A stretch of DNA of 2,353 nucleotides from Escherichia coli (lineage in GTDB: Bacteria > Pseudomonadota > Gammaproteobacteria > Enterobacterales > Enterobacteriaceae), in NCBI RefSeq assembly GCF_003334335.1, contig NZ_QOWQ01000089.1. One strand, given 5' to 3'. The notes under the pieces were generated by a model. That model had not been told where the DNA came from, ran no database searches, and saw only the letters and a program-made list of their open reading frames with translations. Position 1 is the first letter of the stretch. Every line of letters starts with the position of its first letter. Below, piece after piece: positions 1,368 through 2,353 of this stretch. A program made the position numbers and the translations under genes.

Positions 1368-2353
1368 CTTTGCTGTTGTTTGTGGAGTGGCACTTCGTGG
1401 GCTTTTACGCCCACTGCCTGTAACCACCGTTGAATGGGCCGATCAAAATTATTATTTGCCCCCGGAGTCCTCTTATCTTGCTGGGCGGTGGAAGACGTTG
1501 CCCTTTCAGGTGGCAATAATGAACTGCATGGGTAATGACCGGATCCGCACAATTAATCTTATAAAATCAGCTCGAGTCGGTTACACCAAAATGCTGATGG
1601 GCGTTATTGGTTACTTTATTGAGCATAAAAACCGTAACAGTCTTCTGTTTCAGCCTACGGATTCTGCCGCTGAAGATTTTATGAAGTCTCATGTGGAGTC
1701 AACATTACGGGATGTTCCCTGTCTGAAAATTCTTTCCCCCTGGCTGGGGCGTAAGCACCGGGATAACACACTGACATTAAAAAGATTCACGTCCCGTGTG
1801 GGGTTCTGGTGCCTGGGTGGTGCTGCCGCCAAAAACTACCGTGAAAAATCCGTGGACGTGGTCTGCTATGACGAACTTTCCTCGTTCGAGCCGGATGTCG
1901 AAAAAGAGGGCTCGCCAACCCTGCTGGGGGATAAGCGTATTGAGGGCTCGGTATGGCCAAAATCCATTCGCGGCTCGACGCCTAAAATAAAAGGCTCCTG
2001 CCAGATCGAAAAAGCGGCCAACGAGTCGGCGCATTTCATGCGTTTTTATGTGCCCTGCCCACACTGTGGGGAGGCGCAGTATCTGAAATTTGGCGATGAG
2101 TCCACGCCTTTTGGCCTTAAATGGGAGAAGGACAGTCCAGAAAGTGTTTTCTACCTCTGTGAACATCATGGCTGCGTGATCCATCAGTCTGATCTTGACC
2201 AGAGCAACGGGCGGTGGATCTGTGAAAACACGGGCATGTGGACCCGTGACGGCCTGACGTTTTTCAGCGCTGCGGGTAATGAAATTCCGCCGCCGCGCTC
2301 CATCACATTCCATATCTGGACGGCGTACAGTCCGTTCACCACCTGGGTACAGA
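1339..2353 (+). CDS. A: Terminase large subunit (lambda gpA family), N-terminal 338 codons; continues past the window end
   Basis: Frame 1 is open from the ATG at 1339 to the window end. Translation is [86 protein letters not shown]...[10 protein letters not shown]...[25 protein letters not shown]...[20 protein letters not shown]...[23 protein letters not shown]...[17 protein letters not shown]. It is collinear with lambda gpA from memory, including the P-loop-like KSARVGYxK with Lys at codon 76 and YDE with Glu at codon 179. A GGAG Shine-Dalgarno motif at 1328-1331 precedes the ATG, and the start overlaps the Nu1 3' end by 29 nt. It is absent from the ORF track because there is no stop codon in the window. 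Confidence 0.92.

Follow-up and report, generated by a model that had tools for sequence, protein, structure and literature searches.

The terminase of phage lambda is the reference cos-type DNA-packaging enzyme, and the large subunits lambda gpA and phage 21 gp2 are the closest described systems to the protein analyzed here, with which they share both their domain architecture and the gene order Nu1-A-W-B beside cos. The large terminases Sf6 gp2, HK97 TerL, T4 gp17, and P74-26 TerL share an ATPase domain and an RNase-H-like nuclease fold with the model of gpA described below, and no zinc site is known to us in the ATPase domain of any of their structures. Lambda gpA itself is without an experimental structure according to a 2022 paper. 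In the terminase-related literature, zinc appears in connection with herpesvirus pUL28/pUL56, with HNH endonucleases, and as an inhibitor of HK97 packaging. The HNH endonucleases encoded beside the cos/terminase genes of HK97-like phages are described as containing zinc ribbons, including CxxxxC sites (PMC3592412; HK97 gp74), and CxxxxC is listed among the spacings that bind zinc in phage zinc-ribbon domains (PMC3592412). However, each of these endonucleases is a protein in its own right, acting in trans alongside another TerL family, and their parallel to the feature of gpA described here is one of analogy. A description of a zinc site in gpA was not found in the openly accessible full-text literature that we searched, and a zinc ribbon in gpA appears to be uncharacterised in the literature.

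Results

A lambda-type terminase locus with an ordinary gpA

The stretch of DNA analyzed here (the window; 2,353 bases) is 99.9% identical, with 2 mismatches, to the lambdoid Escherichia phage PhiR5_1 (PV340545.1) and runs from the end of Rz through the cos region and Nu1 (819-1367) into gene A, of which it includes the first 338 codons. Gene A lies on the plus strand at 1339-2353, encodes residues 1-338 of the 642 residues of gpA/TerL within the window, and exits at the window end; its reading frame is annotated in PV340545.1 as 'terminase DNA packaging protein A'. We took full-length gpA (642 aa) from the matching PhiR5_1 record (L001:4339-6264). Full-length gpA matched the Pfam models GpA_ATPase (PF05876) at residues 47-293 (E=2.1e-54; 1477-2217 on the plus strand) and, C-terminal to it, GpA_nuclease (PF20454) at residues 323-601 (E=7.6e-71). 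The gene order is cosN (631-642), Nu1 (819-1367), and A (from 1339), followed by W and B in the PhiR5_1 record. Query gpA is 65-66% identical to the lambda protein. Over the stretch compared, the DNA of the A-gene portion of the window shows ~84% identity to gene 2 of phage 21 and to similar lambdoid records, whose proteins reach up to 92.6% identity (phage 1W). Every feature by which we assessed membership of the GpA-type large terminases, namely the Pfam pair, the catalytic residues, and the genomic context, was present, and gene A of the window is a typical representative of the lambda/21 gpA family.

Several further features of the window surround this gene. The start codon of A is located 29 bases within the end of Nu1 in another frame (overlap 1339-1367), the usual arrangement for two terminase genes. 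The 12-base lambda cohesive-end sequence of cosN, GGGCGGCGACCT, is found at 631-642 (context about 560-800) and is followed by a lambda-like cosB sequence (CGCGGGTTTTCGCTATTTATGAAAATTTT...); thus, the window covers the packaging site on which gpA acts. Upstream, an open reading frame at 16-201 on the plus strand is nested in another frame within Rz, whose own frame ends at 263; its peptide product (…MKLCALTLPLVVSAC…PPAWIMQPAPDWQTPLNGII…) is lipoprotein-like. This open reading frame resembles the nested spanin gene Rz1 of lambda, and the matching GenBank record annotates only Rz. Finally, the top database matches of gpA were three E. coli proteins of 742 aa (P0001-P0003, 'terminase large subunit family'), about 100 aa longer than gpA, whose best local alignment to gpA had 89% identity over 62% of the query; these may be chimeric or mis-assembled prophage genes.

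Two cysteine pairs within the ATPase domain

Direct slicing of the window in the gpA frame showed that positions 2056-2067 read TGC CCA CAC TGT (TGCCCACACTGT) and encode CPHC, C240 to C243, and that positions 2158-2175 read TGT GAA CAT CAT GGC TGC (TGTGAACATCATGGCTGC) and encode CEHHGC, C274 to C279, with 30 residues between the two pairs. Both motifs lie on the plus strand: the first, C240-P-H-C243-G (2056-2070), contains the proposed zinc ligands 1 and 2, and the second, C274-E-H-H-G-C279 (2158-2175), the proposed ligands 3 and 4. [quoted passage not shown] Its statement that lambda gpA appears to carry the same pattern (CPHC, CEHNAC) also proved correct, as gpA translated from the lambda genome record has C240-PH-C243 and C274-EHNA-C279 at residue numbers identical to those of the PhiR5_1-type protein. 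Apart from the difference between CEHHGC and CEHNAC in the second motif, the query is an ordinary orthologue.

The position of the motifs relative to the ATPase elements was then derived from sequence, conservation, and the structural model described below. The P-loop KSARVGYTK at residues 76-84 (1564-1590, plus strand), in which G81 is nearly invariant, is the Walker A segment, as assigned in the lambda gpA literature. The Walker B strand VVCYDE with the catalytic Glu occupies residues 174-179 (1858-1875, plus strand; D178 and E179 at least 90% conserved; model strand 174-178), and G212-S213-T214 (1972-1980, plus strand; S213 and P215 conserved; model strand 208-213) is the C (coupling) motif, as this element is named for lambda. 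The order along the domain is Walker A, Walker B, C motif, a helix at 222-229, a core strand at 233-239, the cysteine-bearing ribbon, and a strand at 292-295 that bears the nearly invariant W293, after which more strands and linker helices lead to the nuclease domain. This order, together with the span of the Pfam match, indicates that the ribbon interrupts the ATPase fold as an insertion.

The four cysteines are conserved throughout the GpA family

Taken by itself, the cysteine arrangement of a single sequence is only mildly unusual: a CxxC followed within 15-60 residues by Cx(2-4)C occurred in 1.1% of 20,000 residue shuffles of the protein (642 aa, 14 Cys). We therefore analyzed conservation in two samples of homologues, a check that the earlier note had itself named. 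The first consisted of 24 gpA homologues, 20-66% identical to the query, taken from annotated phage genomes at points across the whole tblastn ranking; the hosts of these phages include Escherichia, Pseudomonas, Vibrio, Rhodobacter, Xanthomonas, Helicobacter, Paenibacillus, Microcystis, and Flavobacterium. At E≤1e-3, a profile of the alignment of these 24 proteins, compared with 1.84 billion representatives, matched 25,773 clusters (50% identity), and the best 150 of the 25,773 cluster representatives (25-53% identical to the query) formed the second sample. Together with the 24 phage proteins this gave n=174, to which all counts out of 174 refer. Close relatives (at least 77% identical) were too similar to serve as a conservation sample and were not used as one.

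Among the 24 phage proteins C240 and C243 were invariant and C274 was at least 90% conserved. C240 and C243 belong to only 12 invariant columns in the whole of gpA, the others of which include the nuclease catalytic Asp; in the alignment D401, D465, and D590 were invariant and G81, D178, and E179 at least 90% conserved, and all of these residues are present in the query. In the larger sample C240 and C243 were each retained in 174 of 174 sequences and C274 in 173 of 174, so that the cysteine columns passed the check. In contrast, the remaining ten cysteines of the query were kept in only 2-49 of the 174, with the exception of C591 (106/174). It is this family-wide conservation, beyond the single-sequence estimate of chance, that establishes the cysteine cluster as real.

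The fourth cysteine showed a different behavior. It was located at 277 (+3, CxxC) in 159 of the 174 sequences and at 279 (+5, CxxxxC; consensus C-x-x-[NHSG]-[AG]-C) in 15, which include lambda and the query phage, and 13 of the 174 carried both cysteines. Lambda, phage 21, and the query phage have a CxxxxC second knuckle in place of the usual CxxC; the CxxxxC spacing of the query phage and lambda is a minority variant and CxxC the family norm. The single exception to a normal second pair was phage AmM-1, which has adjacent cysteines ('PCC'). That the fourth cysteine shifts between +3 and +5 and yet is lost in only one sequence fits selection for a metal ligand. The cysteine motif of the query phage is accordingly the normal gpA motif, with nothing phage-specific about it.

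The residues around the cysteines were conserved to varying degrees. P241 was present in 158/174 and G244 in 108/174 sequences. Histidine was found in about 60% of sequences at 242, where it is part of the common CPHCG knuckle, in about 27% at 276, and in about 1% at 277. The linker between the knuckles varied from 21 to 71 residues across the family, and its surface was poorly conserved. The conserved positions of the ribbon other than the cysteines were mainly aromatic or hydrophobic (W/F251, W/Y/F262, Y272, and I281), and these likely form the core of the module.

Two side observations emerged from the same alignments. Just N-terminal to the ribbon strand, at residues 230-233 (window 2026-2037), most homologues carry a S/G-D-Q-R motif (D231 in 155/174, R233 in 147/174), in place of which the query phage and lambda have S-A/P-H-F; there was no strict association between the CxxxxC variant and either the loss of D231/R233 or an insertion at 253-258. 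In addition, six gpA-family representatives of about 1000 aa (P0128, P0174, P0188, P0216, P0245, and P0270) were matched in two stretches. In such representatives the ATPase domain is interrupted at the Walker A region (Pfam model position 40) by about 330 inserted residues, and in P0128, the one that we examined, the insertion carries LAGLIDADG homing-endonuclease and HINT signatures, identifying it as an intein.

Profile matches and models point to a zinc ribbon

Searching the PDB with the sequence of the gpA fragment gave no match, and the PDB copy searched holds no gpA homologue. When the full-length family profile was compared with the PDB, the only matches were zinc ribbons, all of them at the cysteine region (1QYP at E=0.0015, ribosomal L44e, RPB9, and RPA12), and no Sf6, HK97, T4, or P74-26 terminase was found, the similarity to these being undetectable at the level of sequence. 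A profile restricted to residues 230-296 matched 1QYP, the ribbon of an archaeal RNA-polymerase subunit/TFS, at E=5e-5 and RPB9/RPC10 at 1.5e-3; E values of the matches to L44e, RPB9, RPC10, and RPA12 ranged from 2.5e-4 to 1.5e-2. The matches to solved ribbons fell on profile positions 235-274. In the alignments to these chains the family motifs CPxCG and YxCxxCG fall on the two cysteine pairs; in 1QYP all four cysteines are matched, and we take these four to be the zinc ligands in that structure. Pfam scans of 55 individual ribbon segments were consistent with this, with matches at E≤1e-3 to Lar (13/55), TFIIS (3/55), and TFIIB (2/55) and many more to zinc families at E≤0.1. Apart from GpA_ATPase itself, nearly all families matched by these segments bear the names of zinc-binding families, zinc ribbons for the most part, and the others are DUFs. 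The isolated ribbon segment still matched PF05876, at model positions 192-247.

The resemblance extends to the arrangement of the motifs: TFIIS-C, RPB9, RPA12, archaeal TFS (1QYP), Lar, and TFIIB ribbons all have a CPxCG followed by a second cysteine pair, as does the GpA ribbon, and in GpA as in the TFIIS-type ribbons the second pair is preceded by a conserved aromatic residue (Y-x-C-x-x-C-G) and both knuckles are placed at beta-hairpin turns. However, the GpA ribbon is inserted in a P-loop ATPase domain, whereas TFIIS-type ribbons are free-standing or terminal, and nothing in the GpA ribbon corresponds to the acidic catalytic hairpin of TFIIS. The CxxxxC second knuckle of the query phage is a further difference. 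Membership in the TFIIS C-terminal zinc ribbon family (PF01096) was rejected, as only 3/55 segments matched at E≤1e-3 and the query was not among them. Judged by these profile comparisons, the GpA ribbon resembles TFIIS-C/RPB9 ribbons but is not a PF01096 member.

The AF2 model of full-length gpA had a pLDDT of 94.6 and a pTM of 0.81, and a model of the ribbon alone a pLDDT of 92.1; block pLDDT over residues 233-281 was 90-98. In both models DSSP assigned the first cysteine pair (C240/C243) to a loop at 240-245 between strands 233-239 and 246-248, and the second (C274/C279) to a loop at 274-279 that joins strand 266-273 to strand 280-281; strand 266-273 is itself preceded by its hairpin partner at 259-263. 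The location of the cysteine pairs at two beta-hairpin turns indicates a zinc ribbon topology, and residues 233-281 (2035-2181, plus strand) delimit the predicted zinc-ribbon module. Neither model contained a helix at residues 274-279. Structure prediction, the other check that the earlier note had named, agrees with its metal-site reading at the level of this topology. The earlier note had left the choice between a zinc ribbon and a treble clef and had counted four cysteines and three histidines towards the metal site. Of the two folds the predicted one is the ribbon, favored by the hairpin-turn cysteine pairs and the profile match, and the treble clef was rejected since the models have no helix at the second pair; of the candidate ligands the four conserved cysteines stand, whereas the histidines, although present in the query, do not, because their columns are poorly conserved, and a mixed Cys/His site was rejected on the same ground. 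As a motif, the module is thus predicted from sequence and models to be an ordinary Cys4 zinc ribbon.

Structure comparison with Foldseek related the full-length gpA model to Sf6 gp2, HK97 TerL, T4 gp17, and P74-26 (E 1e-10 to 1e-4, probability 1.0). When the isolated module was compared with solved structures in the same way, rubredoxin B was among the top matches at a non-significant E=1.3.

We also determined the net charge of the ribbon. The mean was -1.9, compared to about 0 expected from whole-protein composition; the ribbon was negative in 72% of the 174 homologues and had a net charge of -4 in both the query phage and lambda. This argues against a generic DNA-backbone binder.

Discussion

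Together, these results make it probable that C240, C243, C274, and C279 form a structural Cys4 zinc ribbon in the packaging ATPase domain of gpA, with a structural or protein-contact role. That zinc occupies the four-cysteine site is what we infer from the profile matches and the models. In the mechanism that we propose, a single Zn(II) bound by the four thiolates would tie together the two knuckles at the tips of the beta-hairpins. The module, approximately residues 233-281, would emerge from the core strand next after that of the C motif, with the chain rejoining the domain at W293. The zinc would be purely structural, rigidifying a beta module that is mostly acidic and protrudes from the ATPase domain, and the Cys4 ribbon would date back to the ancestor of all GpA (PF05876) terminases. 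The ribbon may serve as a folding or assembly element, or as a surface of the packaging motor through which it could contact a neighbouring gpA, Nu1, or the portal, and would be neither a catalytic metal site nor a general clamp on the DNA backbone. Its acidic character and variable linker favor a role in folding, assembly, or protein contact over a grip on DNA or the reading of a sequence.

The ribbon could instead contact nucleic acid, with zinc still bound, and either grip the duplex in the motor channel or aid cos-specific steps particular to lambda-type terminases, such as engagement of the cosN half-sites or separation of the 12-nt cohesive ends. Its closest sequence matches are ribbons of the TFIIS/RPB9/TFIIB/primase type, which commonly contact nucleic acids; it appears to be restricted to the GpA family, to which the 5'-cos-end packager lambda belongs and across which such packaging holds more widely; and a conserved K/R follows the ribbon at position 286 (161/173). 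However, the net acidity of the ribbon in most homologues, including the query phage and lambda, stands against contact with nucleic acid, and so do the range of linker lengths and the poorly conserved surface, which would be unexpected in a sequence-specific reader of a conserved site. We regard nucleic-acid contact as a serious but less likely alternative.

It is far less probable that the four cysteines hold iron, as a redox-active, rubredoxin-like Fe(Cys)4 site or Fe-S cluster. The CPxCG knuckle is also the signature of rubredoxin, and rubredoxin B appeared, although without significance, among the Foldseek matches of the module. Against this, the significant sequence matches are zinc ribbons and not rubredoxins, the linker and the sheet topology of the models fit a ribbon, and two well-separated cysteine pairs are an atypical spacing for 4Fe-4S; moreover, we know of no report of coloured terminase preparations. 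Least probable of all is a metal-free protein whose cysteines are kept for disulfides or packing, or a treble-clef-like mixed Cys/His site that includes H242, H276, and H277: three histidines do adjoin the cysteines in the query, but H276 and H277 are poorly conserved in the family, helix is absent from the second pair in the models, a phage enzyme in the cytoplasm is unlikely to form disulfides, and packing would not predict a fourth cysteine that alternates between +3 and +5 and yet is lost from a single sequence only, a pattern expected of conserved ligands.

The structural Cys4 zinc ribbon thus remains the preferred reading, and it looks specific to the GpA family, since the solved terminases of other families are not known to have a zinc site in their ATPase domain. 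A more speculative proposal, which we consider doubtful, gives the ribbon an active function peculiar to lambda-type (5'-cos) packaging motors, for example as a coupler of ATP hydrolysis between neighbouring gpA subunits, as a wedge or clamp for separating the cohesive ends and engaging cos, or as a zinc- or redox-sensitive switch of terminase assembly.

The four most conserved non-catalytic residues of gpA have apparently been without an assigned role. A Cys4 zinc ribbon, if this is indeed what they form, would explain an invariant of the whole family and would provide a handle for mutagenesis and for construct design, in which zinc supplementation and reducing conditions would matter. Furthermore, it would set GpA-type motors apart from the T4, Sf6, HK97, and P74-26 motors that underlie current mechanistic models. 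Should the ribbon turn out to be a working part of the motor, the best-studied cos terminase would gain a previously unrecognised functional module.
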